From: a virus
Reading direction: 5' to 3' (one strand)
Virus record (IMG/VR): IMGVR_UViG_3300032253_000017
Span: 1 to 36,782 of that record
Length of the DNA stretch: 36,782 bases
In this document: one piece after another, positions 567-36,751 of the stretch
How the letters are laid out: every line of letters begins with the position of its first letter
Numbering within the stretch: position 1 is the first letter of the stretch
Program-made: the position numbers and the translations under genes
Notes under the pieces: generated by a model
Seen by the model: the letters and a program-made list of their open reading frames with translations, nothing else
Databases searched by the model: none
Told to the model about the DNA's origin: nothing

Positions 567-986
567 ATGATTATGAAGAAAACACAAAAACCGTTAAGCT
601 TTAGTCTTTGCGCTGAAAACATAGCTTATGTTGAGCAAGAGTTTAAGGCTAGGCATAGAAATAAGAGTCACTGGATGGATGATTTATTAACTCATTTAAG
701 AAGCAAGAAAGCTCCAGTCAGTAAAGTGCCGCGCTCAAAAGCCAAGACGTACCCTAAAAACATGGATGATAGATTTTCTATGCTATGGGATATAAAAGGC
801 AAGAAAGGCTCTAAAAAGAACGCATACGCTAAATTTAAACTATTAGCTGCTGGCTCTACCGAAGATGGTTGCGAGGATTTTACTCAAATGCTTATAGATG
901 ACATATTGAAACGCCAACATGAGATAGGTGTTAAAGAGCAGCACTTGGTAACTTATCTTAATCAAGAAAATTGGGATCGCGAATAA
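567..986 (+). CDS. Early protein with a ribbon-helix-helix-like N-terminus; possible regulatory or replication-associated role
   Basis: 139-aa ORF. The N-terminal strand-helix-helix pattern is LSFSL..ENIAYVEQEF..SHWMDDLLTHL. The C-terminus FSMLWDIKGKKGSKKNAYAKF...TYLNQENWDRE resembles, from memory, a widespread phage family ending WLNQxRW(E/D). Confidence 0.5.
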   Translation: MIMKKTQKPLSFSLCAENIAYVEQEFKARHRNKSHWMDDLLTHLRSKKAPVSKVPRSKAKTYPKNMDDRFSMLWDIKGKKGSKKNAYAKFKLLAAGSTEDGCEDFTQMLIDDILKRQHEIGVKEQHLVTYLNQENWDRE

Positions 987-1411
987 TGGCTAAAAACATG
1001 AATGAGCTTGTTGCTGGTGTAAAGACTGGTAAAGGTCGAAGTGATAAAGCAAAGGATTACGCTGCGGCTAGTGAGTGGCCTAAATGCTCACACTCTGGCT
1101 GTCCGTTACCAACTACGATTAAAGCTGAAACTGTAACTTGTGGCTATCATTACAGAGAGCATGGATTTAATGCTACTTGCATCACAGAAGCTGTTAAAGA
1201 GTTTCAGCCGTATCTTAAAAAGTATGGTGAGATGATTTACTGGAATGTCAGGCAGTGGAAGGAAAAGCGTAATCAAATGATGGGATGGCCAGTACTTCCA
1301 GCAACAGAAAAAGAAATGGATTACCCGAACAGTTATTTATCTAGGTTTAAAGATTGGATAGATAGCAGCATTAGAGAAAGAGCAGAAGAAATTTACAAAG
1401 GACATAAATAA
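986..1411 (+). CDS. Hypothetical Cys/His-rich protein (141 aa from ATG 986)
   Basis: The track ORF starts at TTG 971. ATG 986 forms a TAATG overlap with the upstream stop. Contains CSHSGCPLP...CGYHYREH. Confidence 0.6.
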   Translation: MAKNMNELVAGVKTGKGRSDKAKDYAAASEWPKCSHSGCPLPTTIKAETVTCGYHYREHGFNATCITEAVKEFQPYLKKYGEMIYWNVRQWKEKRNQMMGWPVLPATEKEMDYPNSYLSRFKDWIDSSIRERAEEIYKGHK

Positions 1412-1659
1412 TGCACTATGACAATGAAAGAGAAGAAGAGGTAACCATTGACAATGGTTTTTACGTATATCAACCAAGGGATAATATAGACTTTCTTGGC
1501 CACTTTGAACCGCTATCATTACCACAAATAATACAGGTTATTGAAGGTGAGGTGTGGCTTACTGGTGTAAGTATCACCTTCCAACTATTTGAGGTTTTTA
1601 TTTGTGGAGCTATTGGAAATATGGTTTTAACAGAAGATGGAGTCGAGTGTAATGCATAA
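1411..1659 (+). CDS. Hypothetical protein, 82 aa
   Basis: ATG in a TAATG overlap with the upstream gene, in the same operon orientation. Confidence 0.5.
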   Translation: MHYDNEREEEVTIDNGFYVYQPRDNIDFLGHFEPLSLPQIIQVIEGEVWLTGVSITFQLFEVFICGAIGNMVLTEDGVECNA

Positions 1660-1855
1660 ACAATTAAACGTACACCAAAAACCACGCGGATTAAAAGAGT
1701 GGACACTAGAGCAGAAAAAAGAACTGTTTAGCTACCACAATAAAGGGTATGACTTTAAAGAAGTCGCTGAAATGATGGGTGTAAGCCCAGCAACAAGAGT
1801 TAGGAATAAAGCAAATAGTATGCACATAAGCTTAGTTAAAGGAGTTGTAAAATGA
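1637..1855 (+). CDS. Small helix-turn-helix DNA-binding protein
   Basis: The 72-aa ORF contains YDFKEVAEMMGVSPATRVRNKANSM, which reads as an HTH. The alternative start is ATG 1652. Confidence 0.55.
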   Translation: MESSVMHKQLNVHQKPRGLKEWTLEQKKELFSYHNKGYDFKEVAEMMGVSPATRVRNKANSMHISLVKGVVK

Positions 1856-2190
1856 TAACTCTTGAAAGCTTAAAGGTGATGCAATCAAAGCCAAAATGCT
1901 TAATTAAAAGAAATAAAATTAAGAAGCCGGGCGAGAGAAAAGAGTATCGCATCCCGAAAGAATCAACCATAAGCAAGGTTGAAGATGCGTTAAAAGACGG
2001 TGAAATACTAACCAGAGCCGCTTTAGTTGTTGCGACTGATTTAAGTAAGGACACAGTTAAGAAAGTAACCGATTGGATGTATAAAAATAAACTAATACTC
2101 AAACATCATATTGCTAATGTTGGTGTGTCTCGAGTTTATGAATATAGATTACGAACTGCTGGCGATGTTGCTATAGGGAAGTGGAAATGA
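1852..2190 (+). CDS. Hypothetical protein, possibly a winged-helix DNA binder
   Basis: 112-aa ORF with an ATGA overlap to the upstream gene. The segment ILTRAALVVATDLSKDTVKKVTDWMYKNKLI looks wHTH-like. Confidence 0.5.
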   Translation: MITLESLKVMQSKPKCLIKRNKIKKPGERKEYRIPKESTISKVEDALKDGEILTRAALVVATDLSKDTVKKVTDWMYKNKLILKHHIANVGVSRVYEYRLRTAGDVAIGKWK

Positions 2191-2285
2191 AAAGAAAATT
2201 TGATGGCGTTAAGGAGCGCAGAAAGGAGTTTACTTGTTGGTTAGTGGCTTCGATTTTAATTATAATTTTTATGGTGCTGATATGA
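2187..2285 (+). CDS. 32-aa single-TM peptide
   Basis: Translated by hand as MKRKFDGVKERRKEFTCWLVASILIIIFMVLI. ATGA overlaps on both sides. Below the 60-aa cutoff of the ORF track. Confidence 0.45.
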   Translation: MKRKFDGVKERRKEFTCWLVASILIIIFMVLI

Positions 2286-2383
2286 AAGAGCGTAATTTTA
2301 CAATTTGTATTATATTGTTTTTAATTTCTATTATTATTGCCGCTGTTATTGGTGACTGTTTAACAAGTATATTCTGGAGTTGA
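2282..2383 (+). CDS. 33-aa single-TM peptide
   Basis: Translated by hand as MKERNFTICIILFLISIIIAAVIGDCLTSIFWS. ATGA overlap with the preceding peptide ORF. Confidence 0.45.
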   Translation: MKERNFTICIILFLISIIIAAVIGDCLTSIFWS

Positions 2384-2571
2384 TTTTGAATAAAGAAGAT
2401 GAGGAAATGTTAAATTATTATGGCGACCAACTAACGACAATAAGAGAAAGAAATAAACGCTTAGAGCATGATGTCAAATTATTGACTAGTTACAATAAAA
2501 GCTCTAGGCGTGAAAACGGATTCTTATTGTGCTTAGTTATTTCTATGTCTCTATGGATTGCGACATCATGA
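2380..2571 (+). CDS. 63-aa protein with a coiled-coil segment and a C-terminal TM segment
   Basis: TTG start at 2380, with ATG 2407 as the alternative. The stop overlaps the next ATG (ATGA). The C-terminus is FLLCLVISMSLWIATS. Confidence 0.45.
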   Translation: MILNKEDEEMLNYYGDQLTTIRERNKRLEHDVKLLTSYNKSSRRENGFLLCLVISMSLWIATS

Positions 2572-3005
2572 AAGTTAATTTAATAGTTACATCAAATAAG
2601 GCGCTATGGCCTACCGATGATTTAGAGAAAGAAAAGCTATCTAAATTGAAGGTAGGTGAATTCTACACTTGTGACATTAAGCTGAATCAAAACTACAGGT
2701 TGCACTCTAAAATATTCGGGTTCTTTAAGTTTTGCACTCAATATTATTATGGTGATTCTGAACCAAGCAAACAGCAAATTGATTATGTTAGGCGTAAGCT
2801 TACAGTTATATCTGGCTATTACACGCAAGTCTTTAGTCGTGATGGTGATTCGTTTGAGCTTGTAGCTGACTCAATTAGTTATGAGAATATGCCTCCAGAA
2901 GAAAGAGGTATTTATTACAAGAAGATAACACAGTCTGCACTTGATAGGGTTTTTGATAGAGCAACAGATACTAATGTGATTAATCAAGTAATTGCTTGGT
3001 TTTGA
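2568..3005 (+). CDS. Conserved phage protein, tentatively DUF1367-like (nin-region type)
   Basis: 145 aa from ATG 2568. LSKLKVGEFYTCDIKLNQNYRLHSKIFGFFKFC resembles DUF1367 as I recall it. Not verified. Confidence 0.4.
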   Translation: MKVNLIVTSNKALWPTDDLEKEKLSKLKVGEFYTCDIKLNQNYRLHSKIFGFFKFCTQYYYGDSEPSKQQIDYVRRKLTVISGYYTQVFSRDGDSFELVADSISYENMPPEERGIYYKKITQSALDRVFDRATDTNVINQVIAWF

Positions 3006-3151
3006 TTATTTAATAAATAATACTTGATTTTAATTATATTAACGTCTAGTATTATTCATAACGAACTAGAGCAGAGTTTATATAGGTCGTTTTGATATAA
3101 CTTATTGATTTTACTAAGTGTACTTAAACGGAAAAGTAGGAGTGGATAATC

Positions 3152-3340
3152 ATGATTATTTGGCTGAAAACAAAATACTATCAGTGGAGGTTTAGATTCA
3201 TTGATGAAGACATATGCTGTTGCGGAGGTAAAATAACTGGTACATGGTGCGGCTCTCTTTATGGGTGTCGTAGCGCAAAAGAATATGCAGTTACCAAAGC
3301 CGTTGAAGGTGACAAGAATTTTATCAGTCTATCAAAGTAG
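3152..3340 (+). CDS. Hypothetical Cys-rich protein, 62 aa
   Basis: ATG ORF preceded by AAAGTAGGAG. Ends in AAG TAG within the junction motif. Confidence 0.55.
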   Translation: MIIWLKTKYYQWRFRFIDEDICCCGGKITGTWCGSLYGCRSAKEYAVTKAVEGDKNFISLSK

Positions 3341-3354
3341 ACGGAGAGATAACG

Positions 3355-3537
3355 ATGACAGGAAAAATGACACCATCGGCATTCAATAAAGTAGTAGAGC
3401 AAGATATTGAATGGCTAGAGAACATGGTTAGTGAATCGGACAAAGATGGCTCTCTAGAATTTGACCATATTGTAAACACGCTTCGTTATGCCGCCAAACA
3501 ATACAGCGACAATAAAAAACGAATAGACGATTTATAA
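3355..3537 (+). CDS. Hypothetical protein, 60 aa
   Basis: ATG preceded by AAAGTAGACGGAGAGATAACG. Confidence 0.55.
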   Translation: MTGKMTPSAFNKVVEQDIEWLENMVSESDKDGSLEFDHIVNTLRYAAKQYSDNKKRIDDL

Positions 3538-3565
3538 TTTATTTTAAAGTAGAAAAGGAATAACG

Positions 3566-3709
3566 ATGCAAAGAAGTGAAAGTTATTGGAAAGGCTATTC
3601 TGATGGGCAGGCGAAAAACGATAAAGCCAGCGCTGACAGAGAATACGTTGAGGGCTACAAGCTTGGGGTTTACGACAAAAGCCACGGGTTTGATTGTCGA
3701 TATGACTAA
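3566..3709 (+). CDS. Hypothetical protein, 47 aa
   Basis: Hand translation MQRSESYWKGYSDGQAKNDKASADREYVEGYKLGVYDKSHGFDCRYD. Preceded by AAAGTAGAAAAGGAATAACG. Confidence 0.45.
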   Translation: MQRSESYWKGYSDGQAKNDKASADREYVEGYKLGVYDKSHGFDCRYD

Positions 3710-3716
3710 TCTATTT

Positions 3717-3738
3717 AAGTAGACCTACGGGTTTACTT
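3717..3738 (+). promoter_or_regulatory. 9-bp hairpin with a TACG tetraloop (AAGTAGACC/GGTTTACTT, one G-T pair) just after the 47-aa ORF
   Basis: Paired by hand. The 5' arm is the junction-motif variant. No T-run follows, so it is not a canonical terminator. Confidence 0.5.
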
Positions 3739-3774
3739 CACACAGTTAAACTTAAATAGAAAAAGGAAAGTAAA

Positions 3775-4221
3775 ATGAAATTCACAGCACAAGAGTTAAC
3801 AGAGTGGGATGGTCACCAAGACGCAGGTACTAGCGGTTGGATACCTGCTCGACCTGACGGTTGGAAAATTGAGGGGTTACTTAACCGTATTCACAATGCC
3901 TGGAAAGTAATTACTGGTGATTATGATGTAGTTGATTGGTATTCGTTCAGAAGAACAGAAACGAGCACGATATCAGTTGTCGTACCAAGCCAGCTACACA
4001 GGGACACTGTAAACCTCGTTTGGCAATTTTCCTCTGCAATGGCTAAGAAGTTAAGAAAGTCTGAATTAAAATATGGCTATGATAATAGATGGAAAGATAA
4101 TGACTGGGCTGATGAATGCAGAAAGCAGTTACAGCAGCATATTGATAAAGGCGACCCGTTAGACGTAGCTAATTACTGTGCTTTTCTTTGGTATATGAAA
4201 GAGTCAACTAGCGAGGATTAG
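3775..4221 (+). CDS. Hypothetical protein, 148 aa; the C-terminal half is possibly a MazG-like all-alpha NTP pyrophosphohydrolase fold (tentative)
   Basis: FSSAMAKKLRKSELKYGYDNRWKD...HIDKGDPLDVANYCAFLWYM resembles phage dATP/dGTP pyrophosphohydrolase-like domains from memory. Confidence 0.3.
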   Translation: MKFTAQELTEWDGHQDAGTSGWIPARPDGWKIEGLLNRIHNAWKVITGDYDVVDWYSFRRTETSTISVVVPSQLHRDTVNLVWQFSSAMAKKLRKSELKYGYDNRWKDNDWADECRKQLQQHIDKGDPLDVANYCAFLWYMKESTSED

Positions 4222-4223
4222 TT

Positions 4224-4394
4224 ATGTCTTATATAGTAATTGTTAACTGCAAACAGCCTGAGTCAGCTGAGATTTTCACTCTGTATGATGATGTTACAAA
4301 CGATGTTTATTTTGATTTAGAAAGCGCTCAATCTTTAGCTGAACAACTAAACGAGTGTAATGGTAAGGGTTACGCACGAATAGTAACTCTATAA
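4224..4394 (+). CDS. Hypothetical protein, 56 aa
   Basis: Hand translation MSYIVIVNCKQPESAEIFTLYDDVTNDVYFDLESAQSLAEQLNECNGKGYARIVTL. The stop runs into the AAAGCAG variant. Confidence 0.45.
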   Translation: MSYIVIVNCKQPESAEIFTLYDDVTNDVYFDLESAQSLAEQLNECNGKGYARIVTL

Positions 4395-4413
4395 AAGCAG
4401 ACGGAGAAAGATT

Positions 4414-4662
4414 ATGAGCAAAAAGAAAATAGAAAAACTCCTAAAAGAAAAAGGTATAGAGGCTGAATCCATTGAGTATCAGCGTGGTTGTCCTGTACCC
4501 GAAGGTTATGCAAGTGGTTGGGATTTGAGTTTTACCGAAAGAACCGAAGATGATGTTTGGTGCGCTGACAGAGAATGTAATTTTGAAATGTTTATGGAGT
4601 TCGGCAGCTTAAAAGAAGTCACTGGCTGGATAGAAACATTACCAACAATTACACAAAAGTAG
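4414..4662 (+). CDS. Hypothetical protein, 82 aa (ends ...ITQK*)
   Basis: ATG preceded by AAAGCAGACGGAGAAAGATT. The last 14 nt, TTACACAAAAGTAG, are identical to the end of ORF 5167-5355. Confidence 0.55.
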   Translation: MSKKKIEKLLKEKGIEAESIEYQRGCPVPEGYASGWDLSFTERTEDDVWCADRECNFEMFMEFGSLKEVTGWIETLPTITQK

Positions 4663-4672
4663 GATTTGAATT

Positions 4673-4846
4673 ATGAGACTAGAAGATTTTAAGAAAAATT
4701 TAAATGAAGCAGGGTGGGATGCAGTTAGTGATGGACAACATCATGGTGTTGAGGATTTACACAAAAAGATATTTCCGTTGGTGGCAGAGCTTGAAAAAGA
4801 AAACTTCGAGCTTTACTGTCAAATCCCTGATGATGAATGCATTTAA
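4673..4846 (+). CDS. Hypothetical protein, 57 aa
   Basis: Hand translation MRLEDFKKNLNEAGWDAVSDGQHHGVEDLHKKIFPLVAELEKENFELYCQIPDDECI. Preceded by AAAGTAGGATTTGAATT. Confidence 0.45.
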   Translation: MRLEDFKKNLNEAGWDAVSDGQHHGVEDLHKKIFPLVAELEKENFELYCQIPDDECI

Positions 4847-4854
4847 AAGTAGGA

Positions 4855-5025
4855 ATGAACAATATGACTGAATTAAATGTTTCACATGCAGGTGAGTCGC
4901 AAGGTGATTTAATGACTCATTCGTCTGTACAATCTTGGTGCGTTGACATCAACAAGGACTTAGTCAAAAGTGATACTATCGAACATGTGGAGGTGAGTAA
5001 TGAACAAAGCATTCCAAAGGAATAG
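4855..5025 (+). CDS. Hypothetical protein, about 56 aa
   Basis: The track ORF starts at 4837. ATG 4855 or 4864 fits the AAAGTAGGA-ATG junction pattern better. Confidence 0.4.
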   Translation: MNNMTELNVSHAGESQGDLMTHSSVQSWCVDINKDLVKSDTIEHVEVSNEQSIPKE

Positions 5026-5070
5026 GTTTTGGTTTTTTATTAGAAGAGTAGAACGCAAACAAATTACGCA

Positions 5071-5149
5071 AAAGTAGGGTTTTGGTGAGTCGGTTGTCAT
5101 AGGGCAAATAGAGTAAGACCCTTTAAGAAGGCTTCCGACTCACCACTTT
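5071..5149 (+). promoter_or_regulatory. 79-nt bipartite hairpin in a 141-nt intergenic gap
   Basis: The outer stem is AAAGT (5071-5075) with ACTTT (5145-5149). An 8-nt bulge follows. The inner stem is a perfect 10 bp, GGTGAGTCGG (5084-5093) with CCGACTCACC (5135-5144), around a 41-nt loop holding a 4-bp AGGG/CCCT stem. Confidence 0.6.
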
Positions 5150-5166
5150 CTTTAAAGTAGGCTGAT

Positions 5167-5355
5167 ATGAAAAAGAATATTGCAATATTAGGTATTGGTC
5201 TAACTGCGAGTTCAAGGATGGTAGAAGCTATTGAGGCTTTGCCTCCTGTTCGTGAACTTGGTTATGACAGTAAAGCCGAAGCCAAGAAGAAAAAGAAACG
5301 TTTACGTGAATTAGCTCGTAGAAAGAAACGGTTAGACAAACTTACACAAAAGTAG
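5167..5355 (+). CDS. Hypothetical protein, 62 aa, with a highly basic C-terminus (ends ...LTQK*)
   Basis: ATG preceded by AAAGTAGGCTGAT. Contains KKKKKRLRELARRKKRLDK. Confidence 0.55.
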   Translation: MKKNIAILGIGLTASSRMVEAIEALPPVRELGYDSKAEAKKKKKRLRELARRKKRLDKLTQK

Positions 5356-5363
5356 AGGTGAGT

Positions 5364-5924
5364 ATGCAAGTTGGATATGTAAGGGTAAGCTCTATAGACC
5401 AAAACCTAGATCGTCAATTAGATGGTATTGAGTTAGATAAGGTTTACGAGGAAAAGCTAAGTGGTAAAAGCCGAGAAAGGCCAAAGCTAAAAGAGTGTAT
5501 AGATTATCTGCGCGAAGGTGATACTCTGCACATTCATAGTATGGATAGATTATCAAGGTCATTAAAGGACTTGTTAAACATAGTTCATGAGTTAACCGAT
5601 AAAAATGTAATGGTTAAATTTCACGCTGAGAATATGGAGTTTGCAGGTAAAGATAACCCAATGAGTTATCTAATGCTTGGTATATTTGGATCTATACATC
5701 AATTTGAAATAGCAAACTTAAAGTTACGACAAGCCGAAGGTATAGCAAAAGCGAAAGCTAGAGGGCAGCAGTTCGGTCGTCGTAGCTTAAAAAAAAGGCT
5801 GGTAGAAGAACTTAAAGAAAGAAGATCAAAAGGCGAATCAGTAATTAAAATAGCAGCATCAATGAACATAGGTACATCGACCTGCTACAAATATTTGGAT
5901 GGAAAGCATGATAAAAGCATCTAG
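5364..5924 (+). CDS. Small serine recombinase, resolvase/invertase family (186 aa)
   Basis: The N-terminal catalytic motif is GYVRVSSIDQNLDRQ, followed by DRLSRS. The C-terminal HTH, QFGRRSLKKRLVEELKERRSKGESVIKIAASMNIGTSTCYKYL, aligns by eye with gamma-delta/Tn3 resolvase. ATG 5364 is preferred over GTG 5358. Confidence 0.9.
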   Translation: MQVGYVRVSSIDQNLDRQLDGIELDKVYEEKLSGKSRERPKLKECIDYLREGDTLHIHSMDRLSRSLKDLLNIVHELTDKNVMVKFHAENMEFAGKDNPMSYLMLGIFGSIHQFEIANLKLRQAEGIAKAKARGQQFGRRSLKKRLVEELKERRSKGESVIKIAASMNIGTSTCYKYLDGKHDKSI

Positions 5925-5943
5925 CAACAAAGTTAAATAATGC

Positions 5944-5977
5944 GCTCACTGTAAAGATAATATTTATAGTGGTGAGC
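5944..5977. repeat. 34-bp palindromic site GCTCAC-N22(AT-rich)-GTGAGC immediately downstream of the recombinase gene
   Basis: Arms at 5944-5949 and 5972-5977. Size and AT-rich centre resemble a serine-recombinase dimer-binding site. It could equally be a plain stem-loop. Confidence 0.35.
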
Positions 5978-6112
5978 TTCGCAACAATAGAAATAACGGT
6001 TCTAGTATTCATTTAAGGTGTAGTGTAGTAAATTTACACTCAATGTCTGTTAAGTGGGTGAGTTCAATTGCAAAAAATATTAACTGTAATCACTAATCTG
6101 GATAACTTAAAG

Positions 6113-6673
6113 ATGAACAAAAAACGTAGATGTCGAGAGTGCAAAGAATATAAGGACTCTATCAGTATGCTGACTGTTAATGGTGGTTCATATTGTGATA
6201 TTGAGTGCTGTACGAAATATGCGTACAAAAAAGGCAAGAAAGCCACTAAAGCAAAGCACGTTAAGCAAAAGAAAGAATTAAAAGACAATGATAAACCTTT
6301 TAGATTAAAGTGCGCTCAATCGGCTTTTAACGCGTTTATACGAAAGCGTGACGAATCACTTGGTTGCATTAGTTGTAATAAGGATAATAATTGGCATGGT
6401 CAATGGCACGCAGGCCACTACAAGACAACCAAGTCACGACCTGATATTCGATTTAATGAAGATAACTGTCACAAACAATGCTCAGTGTGCAATAACCATT
6501 TATCAGGAAATATAGGAGAATACACCCCTAGACTTATAGGGAGAATAGGTCAAGATAAATATTTAGTGTTAACGTTAAATAAAGTAAAAAGATATACTTG
6601 TGCTGAATTAAAAGAAATTGAACGACTTTACAAACGAAAGCTAAAAGAATTAGCGCAGGGTGTGAGAGCCTAA
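6113..6673 (+). CDS. ninG: NinG-like recombination protein
   Basis: N-terminal KKRRCRECKEY and C-terminal AFNAFIRKRDESLGCISC...WHAGHYKTTKSRPDIRFNEDNCHKQCSVCNNHLSGN align closely with lambda NinG as recalled. ATG 6113 is preferred over TTG 6068. Confidence 0.85.
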   Translation: MNKKRRCRECKEYKDSISMLTVNGGSYCDIECCTKYAYKKGKKATKAKHVKQKKELKDNDKPFRLKCAQSAFNAFIRKRDESLGCISCNKDNNWHGQWHAGHYKTTKSRPDIRFNEDNCHKQCSVCNNHLSGNIGEYTPRLIGRIGQDKYLVLTLNKVKRYTCAELKEIERLYKRKLKELAQGVRA

Positions 6674-6735
6674 ACGCAAGCTGCCAGACTTGTGCGCGAT
6701 ATCTGGCAACCAAATCAACCAAAGGAATAATAAAA

Positions 6736-7476
6736 ATGAAATATTTATTTATACTGCTTTTAAGTTTTAACGCTCTAGCTCTAGAGTTTCACCAACAACC
6801 AATAGCACCAGAAGAAAAAGCTATGAATGGTATTATTGAAGATTTAGGACTTAATAGTTGGCGCTTTACAACTCACACTAATATTGCTCGCAATGGTTGT
6901 TTATACTCATACTGCCGCAAAGTTGGTGTGCAAGCTGATGATGATGCTTGGGTGCGTGACAGAATAACAAGTTATAAGTTTAATTTCACCGTTGAAAAAT
7001 ATCCTGACGTTGCGCCTGAATGGGTTATCGTATTTCAGAACTGGATGCGAATAGATCCTGATGATGCAAACGGCAACCACCCAATCTCCACGCTAAAACT
7101 CAAAAATGTTGGCGGTAAATTAATGTTACAACAATATGAGAATAGCTGGCAGTTCGATAGAAGCTATTTTGATTTAGATGATTATTATGATGCTGACCAT
7201 AATCACAGCCTTGAAGTATTGCGAGGTGAAAAAGAGCTAGCTGTTAACCAGACCTATGCAATAGAATTAATTATTGCACATGGTCACTTGCCTAGTGTTG
7301 GTCATGTAACATTAAAGATTGATAGCAAAGTTATTAGTGATAGTGTTTATCAAACAAAATCGTTTACTGAAAGTGGTATAGTTTATTTTGGTCACTATTG
7401 GTCAAAGGACGCTGACTCTATAGATAGCCAGCTAATCACAAGGATGGAAAACTTAACTTACAAGATTACATATTAA
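6736..7476 (+). CDS. Secreted protein with an N-terminal signal peptide; tentatively polysaccharide-lyase/concanavalin-like
   Basis: MKYLFILLLSFNALALE is a signal-like N-terminus. EWVIVFQNWMRIDPDD...HPISTLKLKNVGGKLMLQQ loosely resembles the PF14099-type lyase core (recollection only). Confidence 0.35.
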   Translation: MKYLFILLLSFNALALEFHQQPIAPEEKAMNGIIEDLGLNSWRFTTHTNIARNGCLYSYCRKVGVQADDDAWVRDRITSYKFNFTVEKYPDVAPEWVIVFQNWMRIDPDDANGNHPISTLKLKNVGGKLMLQQYENSWQFDRSYFDLDDYYDADHNHSLEVLRGEKELAVNQTYAIELIIAHGHLPSVGHVTLKIDSKVISDSVYQTKSFTESGIVYFGHYWSKDADSIDSQLITRMENLTYKITY

Positions 7477-7898
7477 GTTGTTATTGGTGTTAAAAGCAAT
7501 TCGATATCTACTGATGTATCGGTTGCTTTTTTTATCTCTAGCGTTATATTTGACTCAACTAAAAATGACGTGTTTAGCTTGTCGATAGTTGAGCTACTGC
7601 CAATCAATTGAGTGGTAGTGAATGATGTGAAATCAATGTCATTCATTACCACTTCGCCATCTATAGTTAAGACGATAGTTGTTGTCTCTGCTATTTGGTT
7701 TTTAATCACCAAGTGACTTAAAGAGAATCTGCCATCCCTATTTAGTATTTCAGACAGCACGCCCGCTGTAAATGTTTCGCTAATATCCTCATAATCCAGC
7801 CCGTTCCCCGGAGTTGAAGGCCAAGACAAGTTTGCGGCTAACTTAGGAAGCCCGCCTGAAACTGTTATACTGCCGCACGTACCAAAATCCCTACTCAT
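7473..7898 (-). CDS. Hypothetical tail-fibre-associated protein, 141 aa (last gene of the late operon)
   Basis: ORF directly downstream of the two fibre genes. Its stop shares the tetranucleotide TTAA with the stop of the convergent + gene. Confidence 0.5.
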   Translation of the reverse strand: MSRDFGTCGSITVSGGLPKLAANLSWPSTPGNGLDYEDISETFTAGVLSEILNRDGRFSLSHLVIKNQIAETTTIVLTIDGEVVMNDIDFTSFTTTQLIGSSSTIDKLNTSFLVESNITLEIKKATDTSVDIELLLTPITT

Positions 7899-7907
7899 AA
7901 TCTACCC

Positions 7908-8663
7908 CTAATCGTTTATATATGTTATTTCATCGGCGTTGAGTACAAAATCATAAAACCTCAAGCCTTGAATGTTTAATGTGAAATTACCAGACAAAGT
8001 AACAACTGATAATAAATCCATGCTAGCCGTAATAGCGGTTGGTAGCGTCGTAGTGCCAGATAGAGAGTTGTTTATATTGATATTCAAAACCCCCGACGAA
8101 TAAGTTAATACTATGACCTTGGTTGCTGCTGATGTGGCATTAATCGTTGTTGATGCTACGTATTGTATTAAGTCACTGCCTTTGATTGTAGATATCCACT
8201 CGCCACTAGCGTTAGTTCCTACACTCAGCAGGTCGCCAGAGGTCGAAGGTATAGCTATAATGTTTTGCTGTGATGCAGCCTCACTATAAGAACCAACCCT
8301 AATAACAACACTAAAATCATTACTTAAGTCAGGAATGTTGTTATATACATTGAAAGTATGTGTTTCAGTACTACCTATAAGCCAGCCTTTGGCTTCCTCC
8401 ATCGGGTTGTCTGCCACTTCAATTTGAGCATCGCCATAAATATCTGTATAGTTACCTGTTGACGGCCTATCAACAACCAATGTTTGATTGATAATATTAA
8501 CTAGATTGTTCTTCTTGTAAAGCCAGCATAGCGGATTATCAACAAGCGCCTTTCTTACGTTATTAAAACCGACACCGTCCGTACCATTTGTACCTGCATC
8601 CCCTTTGGATCCGTTCTCTGATATTTCAACCTTCACAGGCGTGTCGCTTGCTGATAGTGTCAT
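7908..8663 (-). CDS. Tail fibre protein (short paralogue) with a collagen-like N-terminal triplet run
   Basis: GSKGDAGTNGTDGVG is followed by NNVRKALVDNPL. The LamG-like C-terminal end is LRFYDFVLNADEITYI. Confidence 0.6.
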   Translation of the reverse strand: MTLSASDTPVKVEISENGSKGDAGTNGTDGVGFNNVRKALVDNPLCWLYKKNNLVNIINQTLVVDRPSTGNYTDIYGDAQIEVADNPMEEAKGWLIGSTETHTFNVYNNIPDLSNDFSVVIRVGSYSEAASQQNIIAIPSTSGDLLSVGTNASGEWISTIKGSDLIQYVASTTINATSAATKVIVLTYSSGVLNININNSLSGTTTLPTAITASMDLLSVVTLSGNFTLNIQGLRFYDFVLNADEITYIND

Positions 8664-10708: not shown

Positions 10709-13027
10709 TTAATGGTCGCCACCGCCATTTACATACCTAGACGCTGAATCACCAAAAAATGTCACGGTAGCGCCATTATCAACAACACCTTTACCTTTTA
10801 ACCCGCCATTAGCGTTGTTGTTAGCGCCATCTAAACCAAAATTACCAGACAATAAAGAATCCGTACCGTTATCACCAGTCTCACCAGAAAAAACATTAAG
10901 ACTAGCATTTGTTAACTGCCCAGCAACACCAGCCTCACCTATATTCCTTCCGTCACCACCATTACCACTATTACCGCCTTTTTCAGTTATAACATCAGGG
11001 TCAAACCCGCCATCACCACCGCTAGGTGCAATTATATATCCATCTGCCGTAGGGTGTGCTGTTGACGGTGTAGCGCCTGAAAAATATATATCACAATCAA
11101 CGCCTTCTGCATCAAAAACAACACCACCATTCTCACCATTGCCAACAGCAGGAAAATAAAGCCATGATGAAGATTCTTGATCCCATTCAGCACCGCCACC
11201 ATTACCACCCTTGCCACCTTTAGCCATTAACTCAGCGCCATTAGCTAGTATTATAATGATCTTTGATCCAACTGGGAATGCGCCCGCCCTTATAGCTGGT
11301 ATATCTTTGTTGTTGCCGCCACACATAGTGCCATCAAAAACAAAGGTAATTGTAACAGGTTGACTAGGAGCGCCAGCGTATTGTACATATAAGTTTACAT
11401 TGGTTGTACTACCAGAAATCACAACCTCAGAACCAGAGGCAAATATAGGGTCGTAACTTAACGCATAAACACTGTAATCTCGACCTAAACTAGTATAGTT
11501 CGGCTTTATTGATGTGATCTGTACCCTATCACCAGCAGACTGCAACCCATCAAAACCAACGTCTGAAAATGTAGATATGTCAACAATATCTCCAACCTTA
11601 AAATTAAGCTTTCTTTCTTGCGCCTTAAAGATGTAATCTTGAGGGTTTGAAAATCTACTAACCCATCTATTAACAAGTAGGTCTGCGGAATCCTTATCAA
11701 TCACCGCTGTAAAATCAAAGCTTTTTGTTTTAACCTCGCCAAACAAGTCGTCAGATTCTAGCGTGGTATTTTTAAATATAGAGGACTTACTAAAGCTTGT
11801 AACCTCATCAGGGTTTGTTAAGTAAGGTTTATTGTATACAATTAATGCTCTTGTAGATCTTAATGTCTCATTTCTTTTTTTAGTGACACTTTCAAAATCT
11901 ATCTCGTTACCTTCTGTAATAGATATACTTGACTCCTTCCATACGCTTATAGCTGATAGCTTTATTTCTCTATCTACCGGATCGAACCACATATCAAGCA
12001 TATAGTTAGTCAGTATCTCTTTTAATACGTCTGACGTAGGCTTTGACTCTATCCATATAGTGTTTACTCTTGTTGATGGGTGCCACTCATCAACCTCAGC
12101 AGTCCACTTCGCTTTAGGTATAAAAGACGAATCTGTACCTATATCTAAAAGTATTCGCTCTAGTAAATCATCAATACGTTCATTATCAGACACCTCGCAC
12201 ACAAAAACCTCATCTAGTGGATCGTGAGTATCGCTAGTAGTCCTAGTTAACGTATTAGTGTAAACAATATTTGTGCCTCTTGTTTGCACTGTTATCGTTG
12301 CTGATCCTGTGCCTATCCCACTAACACCAATAACCTTGCACAATTCATCGGAAACCCTTACAGTATCACCTATCTGATATGTAACATTAGCATCTACATC
12401 CCAAGAAACTGTTGTCTGGTTTACTGCTGTGCGCAAAGAGCCTTCAAGCGGTAAAGGCCACACAGAGTCGCCGATATTTATTTTTGATAGTTCGTCTTTG
12501 AACTTAAAAGACCATTCGCCATTTTTACTACTGCTTACTGACTCTATGATATAGTGCCTCGTCTCAGCACCATTAGTTAAATCTATAGTCCCATCAATTT
12601 CAAGTCTGTAGTTTTTAATTCGTATGTTTTTGTTTGTGAGTTCGTTTCTTGAGTTTAACTTAGCCAAGAAAGAGCCTTGAGAAATCACGGAAGAAGTCAC
12701 GTCTGGAGCATCGGGGTTAGGATCTTTATTTGTAACATCTATCATAGTTACCGAACCACCACCCCTAGATGCTAACCCTTTATCTACATTTAGCTTAGCT
12801 GGTGTCTCAGATATCTTTTTAACTATCCTTAATATTCCGCTTTCCGGCATATTAAGTGGCGCATCTGTATTTGTAAACTTGTAAGTCCTAGTTGCATTAC
12901 TTGCCTGTCCTGATGATTTTGGAGTGCCAAACCCAGTTAAGGCGCCCTCCACCACTGGTAAGTCGATCTCTATCACTGAAAAGTGAGTTTGATTGAATAA
13001 CCCTCTTGATTGCTCAAATGTACTCAT
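10709..13027 (-). CDS. Tail tip/hub (Tal-like, host-specificity) protein with a Gly-rich C-terminal region, 772 aa
   Basis: Large ORF two genes after the tape measure. C-terminal about 180 aa is rich in GGxGG/GNGG stretches. Confidence 0.6.
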   Translation of the reverse strand: MSTFEQSRGLFNQTHFSVIEIDLPVVEGALTGFGTPKSSGQASNATRTYKFTNTDAPLNMPESGILRIVKKISETPAKLNVDKGLASRGGGSVTMIDVTNKDPNPDAPDVTSSVISQGSFLAKLNSRNELTNKNIRIKNYRLEIDGTIDLTNGAETRHYIIESVSSSKNGEWSFKFKDELSKINIGDSVWPLPLEGSLRTAVNQTTVSWDVDANVTYQIGDTVRVSDELCKVIGVSGIGTGSATITVQTRGTNIVYTNTLTRTTSDTHDPLDEVFVCEVSDNERIDDLLERILLDIGTDSSFIPKAKWTAEVDEWHPSTRVNTIWIESKPTSDVLKEILTNYMLDMWFDPVDREIKLSAISVWKESSISITEGNEIDFESVTKKRNETLRSTRALIVYNKPYLTNPDEVTSFSKSSIFKNTTLESDDLFGEVKTKSFDFTAVIDKDSADLLVNRWVSRFSNPQDYIFKAQERKLNFKVGDIVDISTFSDVGFDGLQSAGDRVQITSIKPNYTSLGRDYSVYALSYDPIFASGSEVVISGSTTNVNLYVQYAGAPSQPVTITFVFDGTMCGGNNKDIPAIRAGAFPVGSKIIIILANGAELMAKGGKGGNGGGAEWDQESSSWLYFPAVGNGENGGVVFDAEGVDCDIYFSGATPSTAHPTADGYIIAPSGGDGGFDPDVITEKGGNSGNGGDGRNIGEAGVAGQLTNASLNVFSGETGDNGTDSLLSGNFGLDGANNNANGGLKGKGVVDNGATVTFFGDSASRYVNGGGDH

Positions 13028-24765: not shown

Positions 24766-26142
24766 TTAAAATCCTGTAAAATCTAAATCTGACACTCTAT
24801 TGCTGTTTACTAAGTATACACTAAGCGCCATTATAAAAGAATCAGCCTTATTAGGTGACTTAACATCTCTTTTCTTTAAGTCGTCCTTGCTTTCAACTTT
24901 TACGCGGCCTGCTTTATCAAAATCACGCCTTGGTGTTGTTAACTCTGTCATTAGCGACTCGATGTTATTTATCTTTGAGCTAACACTTATTAAATCATCG
25001 CTAGAGTAATTTTTATTACCATTATGCAAGTAGTCATACGTATTTCTTAATCTGTCAGCGACTAGCCACCAAGCTTGCGCTTTAATGTTTGAAAAATACT
25101 CTTTGTTTTTAACACCGTTATATTTCTGAGATGGTTTGATAACCTTTCCGCCTGCATTAAAGCCTGCAAAATCATTAAAATTAGCTGCTTGCAAAGTAGA
25201 ACCAGTGTGAGCGCCAACACCAATAGAATCATAAACAACCTTAGCGCGATGCTTAATAGCTTCAATGCGTACTCTGTCAGCAGACTTTTTAAGCTCATTC
25301 TCTCCGCCTTGCCACTCATAACAATCAGTTATTATTGCGCCATCACATATCGTAACAGCGTTCTTATCATCTCCACTGTCTGCAACATCATAACCAAGCA
25401 CTTTAGCACCTTGCATCTCGCCATCATATTTAAGATGAAAATCAATAGCAGCTTCAACCCATGACCTTTTAATTATAACTGCATCATCATCACTTAATGG
25501 TTTACCTAAATAAACATGCTCGTAACGCTCAAAATCTTTTTCTTTTAGTTCTTTTATGCTCTCTCTGAGCGTATCTGATAAAAACGGATTATCAGTATAA
25601 TTAATCCATCTAACCATTGAATTTTTAGGCGGATCGACAATAAAATTCTGCCATACAAAATCAGTTATTAATCTACCGTTAAAGCTTATCCATATTTCAG
25701 AGTTTTGCTTTCTTATTGTTGGCTCTAGTATTTCCCATTGCTCTTTAGTTAGGTTATGCGCCTCTTCGATCCATAAAACATCAGCACCTTCAAATGATTT
25801 TATCTCATCAATGTTTCGCTCTATACCATAAAAAACAAACTCACTACCGTTTTCATGCTCAATAGTTGTTGCTAATTTCTTATAGCCATCAAAACCAAAA
25901 TTATCTATTTGATCCTTGATTAATGTATAGACTGATTCTTTTATCTTATTCTGAAATCTACGAACGCACAAAACCCTAGTTTTATACTCTTGTGCTATTT
26001 GAGATATACGGCCTGCAAATTCCCACGACTTAGTGGATGCCCTGCCTCCATGCAACACCCTGTTTCTAGCTTGGATAAGGTTACCATCAACATCAACCCA
26101 GAAATCTTTTAGCTTAGGGTTCAGTGTTGCCATACATATCAC
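24766..26142 (-). CDS. terL: Terminase large subunit (PBSX/Terminase_3 type)
   Basis: Walker A-like HGGRASTKSW near the N-terminus, with a nuclease-half pattern at the C-terminus. 458 aa. The alternative start is ATG 26133. Confidence 0.85.
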   Translation of the reverse strand: MICMATLNPKLKDFWVDVDGNLIQARNRVLHGGRASTKSWEFAGRISQIAQEYKTRVLCVRRFQNKIKESVYTLIKDQIDNFGFDGYKKLATTIEHENGSEFVFYGIERNIDEIKSFEGADVLWIEEAHNLTKEQWEILEPTIRKQNSEIWISFNGRLITDFVWQNFIVDPPKNSMVRWINYTDNPFLSDTLRESIKELKEKDFERYEHVYLGKPLSDDDAVIIKRSWVEAAIDFHLKYDGEMQGAKVLGYDVADSGDDKNAVTICDGAIITDCYEWQGGENELKKSADRVRIEAIKHRAKVVYDSIGVGAHTGSTLQAANFNDFAGFNAGGKVIKPSQKYNGVKNKEYFSNIKAQAWWLVADRLRNTYDYLHNGNKNYSSDDLISVSSKINNIESLMTELTTPRRDFDKAGRVKVESKDDLKKRDVKSPNKADSFIMALSVYLVNSNRVSDLDFTGF

Positions 26143-27075: not shown

Positions 27076-28536
27076 TTATTTAAAATTAACCGTTATAGCG
27101 CTTGGTTTGTAGCCTACGCTGATTGAATCATTTTCATATTTTACACTAATACCGCTATCTTTAAAACCAACCGTTACATTGCCAATAGTTTGCACTTGTC
27201 CTGATGATATAAATGGGTTGTTTGATGCTGATAAACTATCAATAGAGTTTGGCGAAATATTTACAATTGATTTAAATTCTATCAGTGGATTTACTGAATC
27301 GCTTTGACTGTCTATTGCGTTAGGTGATATTGATAACGAACTAGTAAAGCTAATTACTGGATCTAAACTTAACGATGAACTATCAATAACATTTGGTGCT
27401 AAATTTAATACACTTGCAAATTGTATACTTGGATTGCTAGACGATGAATCTGAATCTATTACTTGAGGCGTGACGTTTAATACGCTACTAAATGATATTA
27501 ACGGGTCGTTACTTGTTGAACCCGAATCAATAGAGTTAGGCGAAACATTTAAAATACTTTCAAATGTGACTATAGGATTTAATGCAGCGCTTGAGCTATC
27601 AATACTTAATGGTGATATATTTACTACAGAGTTAAAAGCTATTGCTGGGTTGCTTGATGTGCTAACGCTGTTTATTGAGCTTGGTGTTACTTCAATTGCT
27701 GAGCCACTACTTTCTAAGGCGTAACCAATAAAATCAACGCTACCAGCAGTAGCCAACGCGCTACCTGATGCAGTTCTGAAATCACCGCCTGCATAGTTCG
27801 CTAAGTCTGCGGTAGTTCTATTCTGTAATGAGTTGCCGTTGTCTGGTGCATCTGTTCCGTCACTAGCGTTATAGTCTGAGGCTGCGTTAAATGTACCGAG
27901 CCAAGGATCTGGACTACCTATAGATAGTGAATTGGTTATGGTGGTATCTGCTGTACCTGTATCTATACCTACCGCACTAGCGTCAACTGATGTTAGTTTG
28001 TTTGCTGTACGGATGTTATTGTTACCAAAGTCAAACCCTGTAGTTCCTAAATATGATAAACACTCGCTTATATTTAGATTGTTGGCGTTATTCATAAAAA
28101 ACAAAATTGCGCCTGATGTAGATGCTGTAGTTGCGTAAACATTTGATATTGTACAATCATTGCCGAACCAATCTACACCCCTGCCAGAACCTAGTGTTCT
28201 AGTGTTTTTAAATCCTATACCTGATAACCTAGTAAAGCTTGATGAGTTAACGAAAACACCAGCAAAACCTACTGATGCCGTAAGGTAAATCCCTGCATCG
28301 GTTACGTGGTCATATTCATCACCTGTAGCTGCTTTTATATCCACATACCTTGTTGCGTCTTGTGTTATGGCAGGCATGGTCACACTATCAGCCAAGCCGC
28401 CAGAAAACTTACTTACAATAATTCTCCACTGCTCATCTGCCGCTACTAGGTTTGCTGTTATTGCTGCTACGGCTGTTGATAGTAAAGTATAATCTCCGCC
28501 ACTAGGTTTAACTGTTTTTGTTATTACCGTAGCCAT
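27076..28536 (-). CDS. Fibre/tailspike-like protein: N-terminal right-handed beta-helix-like region plus seven 24-aa tandem repeats
   Basis: KPSGGDYTLLSTAVAAI is typical of pectate-lyase-fold depolymerase N-termini (recollection). NDCTISNVYA and NISECLSY look like beta-helix rungs. The repeats are described in a separate feature. Confidence 0.6.
   Translation of the reverse strand: MATVITKTVKPSGGDYTLLSTAVAAITANLVAADEQWRIIVSKFSGGLADSVTMPAITQDATRYVDIKAATGDEYDHVTDAGIYLTASVGFAGVFVNSSSFTRLSGIGFKNTRTLGSGRGVDWFGNDCTISNVYATTASTSGAILFFMNNANNLNISECLSYLGTTGFDFGNNNIRTANKLTSVDASAVGIDTGTADTTITNSLSIGSPDPWLGTFNAASDYNASDGTDAPDNGNSLQNRTTADLANYAGGDFRTASGSALATAGSVDFIGYALESSGSAIEVTPSSINSVSTSSNPAIAFNSVVNISPLSIDSSSAALNPIVTFESILNVSPNSIDSGSTSNDPLISFSSVLNVTPQVIDSDSSSSNPSIQFASVLNLAPNVIDSSSLSLDPVISFTSSLSISPNAIDSQSDSVNPLIEFKSIVNISPNSIDSLSASNNPFISSGQVQTIGNVTVGFKDSGISVKYENDSISVGYKPSAITVNFK
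27187..27690 (-). repeat. Seven tandem 72-bp (24-aa) degenerate coding repeats
   Basis: The unit is [VIL]-[STA]-P-x-x-I-[DN]-S-x-S-x-S-x-[ND]-P-x-I-x-F-x-S-[VIL]-[VL]-N, covering aa 283-450 of the 486-aa protein. Confidence 0.85.
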
Positions 28537-36556: not shown

Positions 36557-36751
36557 CTAGCCATCGCCAGAGCCATCGCCAGAGCCATCGCCAGAGCCAT
36601 CGCCAGAGCCATAGCCATCGCCATAGCCAGAGCCATCGCCAGAGCCATAGCCATCGCCATAGCCATAGCCATAGCCAGAGCCATCGCCAGAGCCATCGCC
36701 AGAGCCATAGCCATAGCCTTTTTTATCTTTATCTGTGATTACTCTTTCCAT
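36557..36751 (-). CDS. Putative 64-aa peptide: leader MERVITDKDKK followed by a (Gly-[Tyr/Ser/Asp])27 repeat
   Basis: The ATG overlaps the stop of the 121-aa gene (ATGGAAAGAGTAA), and a GAGAG run lies 9-13 nt upstream. Five of six frames are open through the repeat, so coding status is unproven. Confidence 0.45.
   Translation of the reverse strand: MERVITDKDKKGYGYGSGDGSGDGSGYGYGYGDGYGSGDGSGYGDGYGSGDGSGDGSGDGSGDG
36560..36718. repeat. Tandem hexanucleotide array: 26 x GCCA[T/G][A/C] plus GCC (159 bp)
   Basis: Counted unit by unit: 10 GCCATC, 9 GCCAGA and 7 GCCATA, with GCCATCGCCAGA as the commonest 12-mer. Confidence 0.95.

Follow-up and report, generated by a model that had tools for sequence, protein, structure and literature searches.

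AAAGTAG linkers in a small-gene array of a marine tailed phage as candidate boundary sequences for cassette exchange

Composition of the array locus

The window, which is the whole analysed stretch of 36,782 nucleotides from virus record IMGVR_UViG_3300032253_000017, is a complete tailed-phage genome of ~36.8 kb; its + strand operon spans ~567 to 7476 and includes an array of tiny open reading frames (ORFs) in which the heptamer AAAGTAG recurs at the gene boundaries. The block that holds this heptamer is ordered as NinB, a conserved promoter and leader, nine tiny ORFs (47-148 aa), a serine recombinase, and NinG; as a set of small genes between NinB/Orf and NinG/Rap homologues, 3' of the replication genes, it is a nin-type region. 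Most of the small array ORFs have no family match. The + strand genes upstream are joined by overlapping stop and start codons (ATGA, TAATG), whereas the array genes are joined by a non-overlapping linker. The genes that frame the array are:

567-986: replication-initiator-like match
2529..3005 (+): NinB/Orf-like recombination mediator, the conserved left anchor gene (phrog_319, E 1e-25)
5364..5924 (+): small serine recombinase of the resolvase/invertase family, the conserved right anchor gene, co-transcribed with the array (PF00239, E 8e-34)
6068..6673 (+): NinG/Rap-like junction endonuclease (phrog_171, E 5e-54)

The solved structures nearest to the serine recombinase are the Sin, Gin and Tn3 resolvases. 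Queries with the 148-aa array protein, with the recombinase, with the leader pattern and with words from the linker brought up related loci in marine metagenomes including TARA. Eight other independent arrays share the architecture: L001, L081 (read in reverse, L081r), L124, L125, L182, L183, L185 and L187. The nine arrays counted below are the window and these eight; a truncated fragment, L188, was left out of the counts. The parts of the array in the window are:

3024..3052 (+): sigma-70-type array promoter, TTGATT, 17-nt spacer, TAGTAT; kept in an alignment of the window, L001, L081r and L125
3053..3151 (+): conserved array leader (5' untranslated region), ~100 nt, 70-88% identity to L001, L081r, L125, L183 and L187
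3133..3139 (+): linker core copy 1, AAAGTAG at the leader end, 12 nt before ATG 3152
3152..3340 (+): cassette ORF 1, 62 aa, ending ...LSK with the TAG of core 3334-3340 as its stop; matches phrog_21505
3334..3357 (+): linker AAAGTAG-ACGGAGAGATAACG-ATG; the same 24-35 nt linker stands between unrelated genes in L001 (4781-4815), L081r, L185 and L187
3355..3537 (+): cassette ORF 2, 60 aa, which includes the apparently chance in-frame copy at 3388
3546..3568 (+): linker AAAGTAG-AAAAGGAATAACG-ATG, the upstream TAA at 3535 being in frame with the core TAG; matches L183 5041-5064
3566..3709 (+): cassette ORF 3, 47 aa
3716..3774 (+): compound linker, TAAGTAG plus a 45-nt spacer (ACCTACGGGTTTACTTCACACAGTTAAACTTAAATAGAAAAAGGAAAGTAAA) whose 3' half repeats the leader end
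3775..4221 (+): cassette ORF 4, 148 aa, one of just four families common to several arrays; 89% nucleotide identity to L001 6001-6447
4224..4394 (+): cassette ORF 5, 56 aa
4394..4416 (+): linker variant AAAGCAG-ACGGAGAAAGATT-ATG; matches L081r 7210-7228
4414..4662 (+): cassette ORF 6, 82 aa, ending ...ITQK with the core TAG as its stop
4649..4675 (+): linker TTACACA-AAAGTAG-GATTTGAATT-ATG; 21-24 nt identical in L081r (7799, 8431), L182 and L125
4673..4846 (+): cassette ORF 7, 57 aa, with TAA and then in-frame AAG TAG
4846..4866 (+): linker AAAGTAG-GAATGAACAAT-ATG; 19 nt identical to L001 5538-5556, where unrelated genes adjoin
4864..5025 (+): cassette ORF 8, 53 aa from ATG 4864
5000..5077 (+): relic ORF ending ...ITQK at core 5071-5077, with no gene after the core
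5083..5145 (+): stable hairpin between two cores, an 11-pair G+C-rich stem with a large loop and then CUUUCUUU; no ORF
5154..5169 (+): linker AAAGTAG-GCTGAT-ATG; 24 nt identical to L081r 6771-6794
5167..5355 (+): cassette ORF 9, 62 aa, ending ...LTQK with the core TAG as its stop; its 3' 70 nt match L185 2698-2767
5342..5366 (+): last linker, TTACACA-AAAGTAG-AGGTGAGT-ATG, the right-hand boundary of the variable block

Matches to the promoter pattern TTTARTTAYATTAANRTCTAGWATT in the viral and metagenome collections are confined to related arrays, and the point where homology between relatives stops is the 3' end of the leader. Promoter and leader together (3024-3151) are 70-88% identical in at least six related phages that differ in their downstream genes; the predicted fold of the leader is not significant. 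Core copy 1 at 3133 is probably secondary, judging from the relatives, which carry GGAAAAAGGAA at this position. The 3' end of the leader (TAAACTTTAAyGGAAAAAGGAA) recurs within arrays, where it forms one portion of the 45-nt compound linker; copies of the compound linker at 3716-3774 that are 87-97% identical stand beside unrelated genes in L001 (4452-4506) and L185 (2760-2792). The junction of ORF 4 and ORF 5 is TAGTTATG, without a core.

Distribution of the heptamer in the window

The window holds 14 copies of AAAGTAG, 12 on its + strand and two on the minus strand (23947, 27707). Nine of the + strand copies fall within 3133-5355, at 3133, 3334, 3388, 3546, 4656, 4846, 5071, 5154 and 5349; the initial annotation, made from the sequence of this window, had given eight of these positions correctly and had overlooked the copy at 3388, which is in frame within ORF 3355-3537 (AAT AAA GTA GTA) and looks like a chance occurrence inside a gene. 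The remaining ~34 kb of the + strand holds only three copies (16625, 22651, 25193), one more than had been noticed, 25193 being the addition. Three one-base variants had also been proposed; TAAGTAG (3716-3722) and AAAGCAG (4394-4400) are such variants, while the site at 3754 reads AAATAGA, a form with one base deleted and no substitution. A longer 14-mer, TTAC[A/G]CAAAAGTAG, is present at 4649, 5064 and 5342, just as described in that annotation.

Comparison with shuffled expectation, which had been put forward as a check, gave a divided answer. Over the whole window the heptamer is not enriched (14 observed vs 9.2 +/- 2.6 in shuffles); its clustering in the 2.36-kb block, however, is extreme, with nine copies observed vs 0.59 expected under first- and second-order Markov models trained on region 3006-5363 itself (Poisson P~1e-8). 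In an unbiased scan of every 7-mer, AAAGTAG is the most clustered word once tandem-repeat words and homopolymer-like A-runs are set aside.

The copies are also fixed in placement, as had been claimed: in the array of the window an ATG follows 6-14 nt downstream, with a purine and Shine-Dalgarno-like stretch in between, and the cores at junctions lie on the coding (+) strand throughout. The TAG of the motif was said to serve as the upstream stop codon in several cases; this is so for ORFs 3152-3340, 4414-4662 and 5167-5355 and for the relic ORF ending at 5077, and at copies 3546 and 4846 an earlier TAA is in frame with the motif TAG.

Linker anatomy across the nine arrays

The nine arrays contain 58 junctions, 46 of which (~80%) carry either an exact AAAGTAG (31) or a one-base variant (15; TAAGTAG, AAGGTAG, AAAGCAG); the other 12 mostly have visibly degenerate versions of the core. 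As a control, the 35 minus-strand junctions of the window have no exact core and six one-base variants.

An information profile over 43 non-redundant sites extends the motif to TTAYAYA-AAAGTAG-R (as RNA, UUACACAAAAGUAGR, also written UUACACAAAAGUAGG), with nothing conserved or symmetric further downstream. The full linker is composed of this extended motif, a Shine-Dalgarno sequence, a 5-9 nt spacer and the ATG; the Shine-Dalgarno sequence lies downstream of the core or overlaps just its last two bases, and the gap from core to ATG is mostly 6-15 nt, with a full range of 2-52 nt. At 23 of ~43 cores the TAG itself is the stop codon of the upstream gene, and ~9 further cores have their TAG in frame with a stop that comes earlier; where the variant is TAAGTAG, it is often the TAA that acts as the stop. 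Unrelated array proteins end in -[ILVF]TQK or -LSK because the information of the motif reaches 7 nt upstream into the coding sequence.

The information content is one-sided and confined to ~15 asymmetric nt. Around the TA of the core the flanking 12-mers show no dyad symmetry (mean of 2.9/12 complementary matches vs a null of 3.2), and the best symmetry centre anywhere in the linkers reaches 4.7/12. No conserved secondary structure was found around the core, and the promoter and terminator scan returned nothing at the linkers. The sole strong hairpin found (5083-5145; dG -32.6 kcal/mol, z -3.2, with 0/200 shuffles as stable) sits between two cores rather than at a linker; it may be a non-coding cassette, an internal terminator or an RNA stabiliser, and the BLAST comparison with nine related loci gave no counterpart.

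Related arrays and gene turnover

Each of the eight relatives has a NinB-like gene, a promoter and leader, and a small-ORF array, L124 being without a match to the leader pattern. Wherever the contig reaches the distal end of the array, as it does in eight cases (the window, L001, L081, L124, L125, L182, L183 and L187), the serine recombinase gene comes next; the contig of L185 ends before the position of the recombinase. The (A)AGTAG before the recombinase gene is strictly invariant in these 8/8 arrays and the adjacent spacer varies. Linkers are also present in L174, from a Colwellia metagenome-assembled genome (MAG), and in L196, where the recombinase gene does not adjoin the array.

The genes between the linkers are almost completely turned over: of ~65 array genes, all but the members of four small families are confined to a single array. 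Two of the cassette genes, those of 148 aa and 56 aa, are also found in unrelated, linker-less phage types (L002, L003; 5834-6456), in swapped order and joined by an ATGA overlap; cassettes therefore cross clade boundaries, but the linker is clade-specific. A shorter, paralogue-like gene of the 148-aa family lies in L001 (4811-5116).

Directly behind the leader, the opening cassette is in many cases a larger, enzyme-like gene (L001 3576-4442, L182 4915-5958, L196 805-1626, L183 3971-4711); L182 and L196 have in common a protein of ~270-350 aa (MKxVVSFSGGRTS...), and L183 3971-4711 is a probable DNA methyltransferase with a DPPY motif. These enzyme-like first cassettes, including the probable methyltransferase, hint at a DNA-modification or anti-restriction function of the block.

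The array region had no blastn match among INPHARED phages, and a NinB protein scan of viral contigs gave no relatives. The 14-mer AAAGTAGACGGAGA had >120 matches in viral contigs, nearly all by chance and with L081 as the only real relative; the 16-mer TTACACAAAAGTAGGA had 55, with L196 as the sole new array. The loci L064, L093, L013, L039 and L068, each with several AAAGTAG copies, were rejected as linker arrays, the heptamer there being in-frame Lys-Val coding sequence.

Evidence for exchange at the linkers

The arrays have essentially only linkers in common. In an all-vs-all short-word BLAST of the arrays, from which the leader and recombinase were excluded, 107 of 158 high-scoring segment pairs (HSPs) hold an intact core in both partners; the others have mostly partial or variant cores, and ~5 are genic. 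The core together with one shared arm provides 14-25 nt of identity between otherwise unrelated arrays, the longest linker identities being 24 nt at 100% and 35 nt at 94%, and the longest exact ones 22-24 nt.

The arms appear as a pool common to all arrays. On the left they fall into the classes TTACAYA, T-rich and YATC (arms TTACACA, TTATTTT and CTATC); on the right they are ACGGAGARATAACG, AGGTGAGT, GATTTGAATT, GAATGAACAA, GAGCAAAAATTAA, GCTGAT and the 45-nt spacer beginning ACCTCGCGG, scored as the classes ACGGAG.., AGGTGAGT, GATTTG.., GAATG.., GAGCAA.., GCT.. and ACCTCG... Left and right arms combine independently (mutual information 0.32 vs 0.40 +/- 0.09 permuted, P=0.83), and homogenisation of linker arms within an array, as in concerted evolution, is absent. 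The 18-mer AAAGTAGAGGTGAGTATG occurs three times in L124 and once more, with TAAGTAG, before the L124 recombinase gene.

Alignment of related phages had been suggested as the way to see whether mosaic breakpoints coincide with the motif, and they do so in two gene-level cases and in eight comparisons of array flanks. L001 6456-6633 matches L081r 8265-8442 and L185 2698-2767 matches window 5287-5356; in both pairs homology ends one base past the core. The mosaic joints can be read on both sides: in L001 6590-6660 the left part, from a CxxC mini-protein gene, is homologous to L081r and the right part, from the recombinase gene, to L182, with the switch inside AAAGTAG, and window 5287-5400 resembles L185 on the left and L124 on the right, with the switch at the core; the homology of L124 to the window begins at 5350, inside the last core. 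Eight pairwise array comparisons show homology on the right setting in again within 0-7 nt of the final core, the one ahead of the recombinase gene; on the other side homology stops at the leader end. The pair L182 vs L187 is 83-96% identical in both flanks with entirely different arrays of 3 vs 8 genes. Apparent scars of exchange are also found, namely cores without a following gene (window 5071, L182 5966), tandem or compound linkers (window 3716-3774, L185 2263-2306, L001 5949-6000) and mini-ORF relics.

Comparison with known systems

In the lambdoid modular-evolution model, as cited in PMC3029335, homologous recombination takes place at short conserved sequences between modules. The linkers resemble such boundary sequences in being short conserved sequences at gene boundaries with non-homologous genes around them (107/158 HSPs), in the coincidence of homology breakpoints with the element (within 0-7 nt of the core, though not for all 5' breakpoints), and in their setting in the nin-type region of a lambdoid-style genome with its own recombination genes. 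They differ in that one defined word stands at ~80% of the junctions of nine arrays and doubles as the upstream stop.

The start-associated sequences (SAS) of Cluster K mycobacteriophages have a 13-bp consensus, GGGATAGGAGCCC, that includes a Shine-Dalgarno core and lies 3-7 bp from the start codon; no recombination role has been proposed for them (PMC3203893). Like SAS, the linker is an asymmetric short repeat in a single orientation before the start codons of non-structural genes from different families; it is likewise clade-specific and confined to the non-structural half of the genome, and the upstream stop codon is sometimes inside the element. Unlike SAS, AAAGTAG is unrelated to GGGATAGGAGCCC, lies upstream of the Shine-Dalgarno sequence and has a gap of 6-15 nt; moreover, Cluster K phages keep their SAS genes largely in synteny, in contrast to the near-complete replacement of the genes between the present linkers.

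The promoter-early stem-loop (PeSL) of T4-type phages, a larger composite element that consists of a sigma-70-like early promoter and a terminator stem-loop, is found in hyperplastic regions; recombination between PeSL leads to gene insertion, deletion and replacement, and mini-circles have been demonstrated (PMC2839356, PMC4122927). Common to both systems are hypervariable regions in which small ORFan genes stand between repeated regulatory cassettes. The linker described here, in contrast, is 15-35 nt long, acts at the level of translation (stop codon and ribosome-binding site) within a single operon, and has neither promoter nor stem-loop.

An integron consists of a Pc promoter, attI, attC sites with the 7-bp core GTTRRRY, and IntI. 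The array is formally similar, having one upstream promoter, promoterless cassettes, a 7-bp core at the cassette boundaries and an adjoining recombinase gene; however, this gene encodes a small serine recombinase (PF00239, Sin/Gin/Tn3 family) at the distal end and not an IntI tyrosine recombinase, no attC-like imperfect palindrome is present, and linkers also occur without the recombinase (L174, L196). Sites of the res site I, hix or gix type have two inverted half-sites of ~12 bp around a central dinucleotide, an arrangement that the linkers do not show. The linker thus belongs to neither SAS nor PeSL, and it is not an attC and not a serine-recombinase site; by analogy it would function like lambdoid boundary sequences and PeSL cassettes, and its placement resembles that of SAS.

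Interpretation and alternatives

It is hypothesized, with moderate confidence and on comparative sequence evidence, that AAAGTAG is a stop-plus-ribosome-binding-site boundary sequence that acts as a short-homology crossover point for cassette exchange. The heptamer is the invariant core of a clade-specific intergenic linker, which supplies the last codons and stop (Lys-TAG) of the upstream tiny gene and abuts the ribosome-binding site of the next; such linkers punctuate a hypervariable array of promoterless cassettes running from one promoter and leader to the serine recombinase gene. Crossovers between linkers of co-infecting phages or prophages might then swap, insert or delete whole cassettes, and every product would keep an intact stop codon and ribosome-binding site. 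That whole cassettes can be exchanged in this way follows from the 14-25 nt of identity given by the core and a shared flank, a length too short for RecA. The enzymes of the exchange would probably be Erf, the exonuclease, NinB and NinG of the phage itself; Erf and the exonuclease are encoded as the initial annotation had stated, and SSB, NinB and NinG are encoded too. The linker may serve termination-reinitiation coupling as well, which would be part of why it is retained. Recombinases of the Erf type work well on homology that is short and diverged, and Red-beta needs a pairing segment of at least 23-27 bp (PMC3945230), a minimum to which the longest exact identities between linkers, at 22-24 nt, come close.

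Crossover points for shuffling small genes had been among the original proposals, and this is the proposal that the comparative data support, with linkers kept between different genes, flanks reassorted and breakpoints at the core; the recombination itself is read from mosaic patterns. Several points weigh against the crossover reading. Searches returned no near-identical pair of genomes differing by one cassette, and the contigs with exact protein matches, L191 and L192, share an identical array. Breakpoints at gene boundaries are also expected if selection merely removes recombinants with broken genes. The universally shared core is just 7-8 nt, well under the 23-27 bp Red-beta minimum, and longer identity needs a shared arm. 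At the 5' ends of genes the breakpoint is not always at the core: in fam4, homology sets in a few codons into the gene, and the 3' junction of the 148-aa gene has no core. The invariant (A)AGTAG before the recombinase gene, beside a varying spacer, could equally reflect purifying selection on a cis-acting signal.

In an alternative that is considered possible, if unlikely, the linker is mainly a cis-acting RNA signal. A translational regulator or an endoribonuclease, of phage or host origin, would bind or cleave it, as had also been among the original proposals, or else it would be required for efficient termination-reinitiation along a long polycistronic mRNA of tiny ORFs; its presence at the junctions would then reflect selection on expression, with recombination incidental. 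The linker is strand-specific, lies within one transcription unit below a conserved promoter and leader, and has a fixed relation to stop and start codons (gap of 6-15 nt); in 8 arrays the core ahead of the recombinase gene does not change and the spacer beside it does, and the information of the linker extends 7 nt into the upstream coding sequence, such that unrelated proteins end in -TQK or -LSK. The other + strand junctions of the window use overlapping stop and start codons, so the array is handled differently, and a similar proposal exists as a precedent for the SAS of Cluster K mycobacteriophages (PMC3203893). There is, however, no known candidate factor, no conserved secondary structure at the core and no Rfam match; the distance to the start codon, with its full range of 2-52 nt, varies more than would be expected of a translational operator, and the core itself is not a Shine-Dalgarno sequence. 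By itself, an RNA signal also leaves unexplained the gene-less cores, the tandem linkers and the shared 20-35 nt linker "alleles" beside unrelated genes.

The remaining explanations carry far less weight. It is highly improbable that the core is a site-specific crossover site of an integron-like platform, at which the TA of AAAG-TA-G would be cleaved by the serine recombinase or by some other dedicated enzyme. The small serine recombinase gene directly after the array in all eight arrays with a distal end on the contig, the formal likeness to an integron (one promoter, promoterless cassettes, a 7-bp core per boundary) and the failure to find another role for the recombinase, with no convincing invertible segment and no integrase seen, are in favour of such a site. 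Resolvase and invertase crossover sites, however, bind a recombinase dimer on symmetric half-sites, and the linkers have one-sided information without dyad symmetry (2.9/12 vs 3.2); the right arms are simply different ribosome-binding sites, and L174 and L196 have linkers with no adjoining recombinase gene. A related proposal, that the array is a dedicated cassette-exchange platform and phage analogue of the integron, with the 7-bp core cut and rejoined by the serine recombinase or an unrecognised factor and cassettes moving as circles, is regarded as very unlikely. A phage-specific promoter-like sequence before each small gene, suggested in the initial annotation and in keeping with the recurrence of the motif upstream of each ORF in one orientation, is scarcely tenable: the copies are 6-15 nt from the ATG with a Shine-Dalgarno sequence between, which leaves no room for a transcript leader, there are no sigma-70-like hexamers at the linkers, the ORFs that were compared with protein families include no phage RNA polymerase, and one conserved sigma-70-type promoter (3024-3052) precedes the whole array. 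A chance or compositional artefact of A-rich, TAG-terminated small ORFs would fit the unenriched whole-window count (14 vs 9.2) and the copy at 3388, clearly a chance in-frame occurrence, but it is excluded by the local count (9 vs 0.59) and by the recurrence of core and flanks at 46/58 junctions in nine independent arrays with unrelated genes. A Chi site, RegB/RegA-type sites, a CsrA site, toxin RNase sites and a transposon target-site duplication were further candidates, dropped for lack of a test or match; a reading of the motif TAG by a suppressor tRNA was rejected, as the window has no tRNAs.

If AAAGTAG is a boundary sequence for cassette exchange, as is favoured here, it bears on an old objection to the boundary-sequence model, namely that such sequences are not found at most joints (PMC3029335). 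The present clade of marine, probably Colwellia-infecting, lambdoid phages would be an unusually clean case: one 7-15 nt word stands at ~80% of junctions, is almost the only DNA common to arrays with turned-over genes, and is so placed that any crossover would regenerate the stop and ribosome-binding site. The placement and ubiquity of the word make the model directly testable. The concept is already known and has analogues in SAS and PeSL; what sets the present linker apart is a single defined word that doubles as a stop codon. The linker word would also offer an easy way to find the limits of accessory cassettes, or of candidate anti-defence ones, in phage contigs from metagenomes.

Other features of the genome

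The minus strand encodes the structural, lysis and early-left genes, which include TerL, portal, major head protein, tape measure, tail fibre, endolysin, exonuclease, Erf and SSB:

24766-26142: TerL

Colwellia MAGs are the source of the NinG relatives in the genome collections, and a Colwellia-like marine bacterium is accordingly suggested as the host. No Rfam family was found in the window. No integrase-sized ORF was found there either, and the small serine recombinase is the sole recombinase seen; the search for an invertible segment on which it might act gave only weak inverted repeats, none convincing, the best being 25 nt at 80% (7456-7480 with 12862-12886) and bracketing the tail-fibre genes.

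The intergenic region 3' of the recombinase gene (5925-6067) has a weak hairpin, GCTCAC...GGTGAGC (z -1.4), and a second copy of the TCTAGTATT box known from the -10 element of the array promoter; this second box may be a second promoter of the same type before NinG.

For a 486-aa ORF on the minus strand upstream of the terminase gene (27076-28536), PHROG gave no match, nor did tblastn against 50,697 phage records; this ORF was rejected as the terminase, TerL being the gene at 24766-26142. Tandem repeats of AGCCATCGCCAG (x13) and GCCATA (x10) at 36559-36718 and 1-63 run across the ends of the window and encode, on the minus strand, a low-complexity (GYG/SGD)n protein segment of Gly, Tyr, Asp and Ser; the assembly is therefore circular or circularly permuted.

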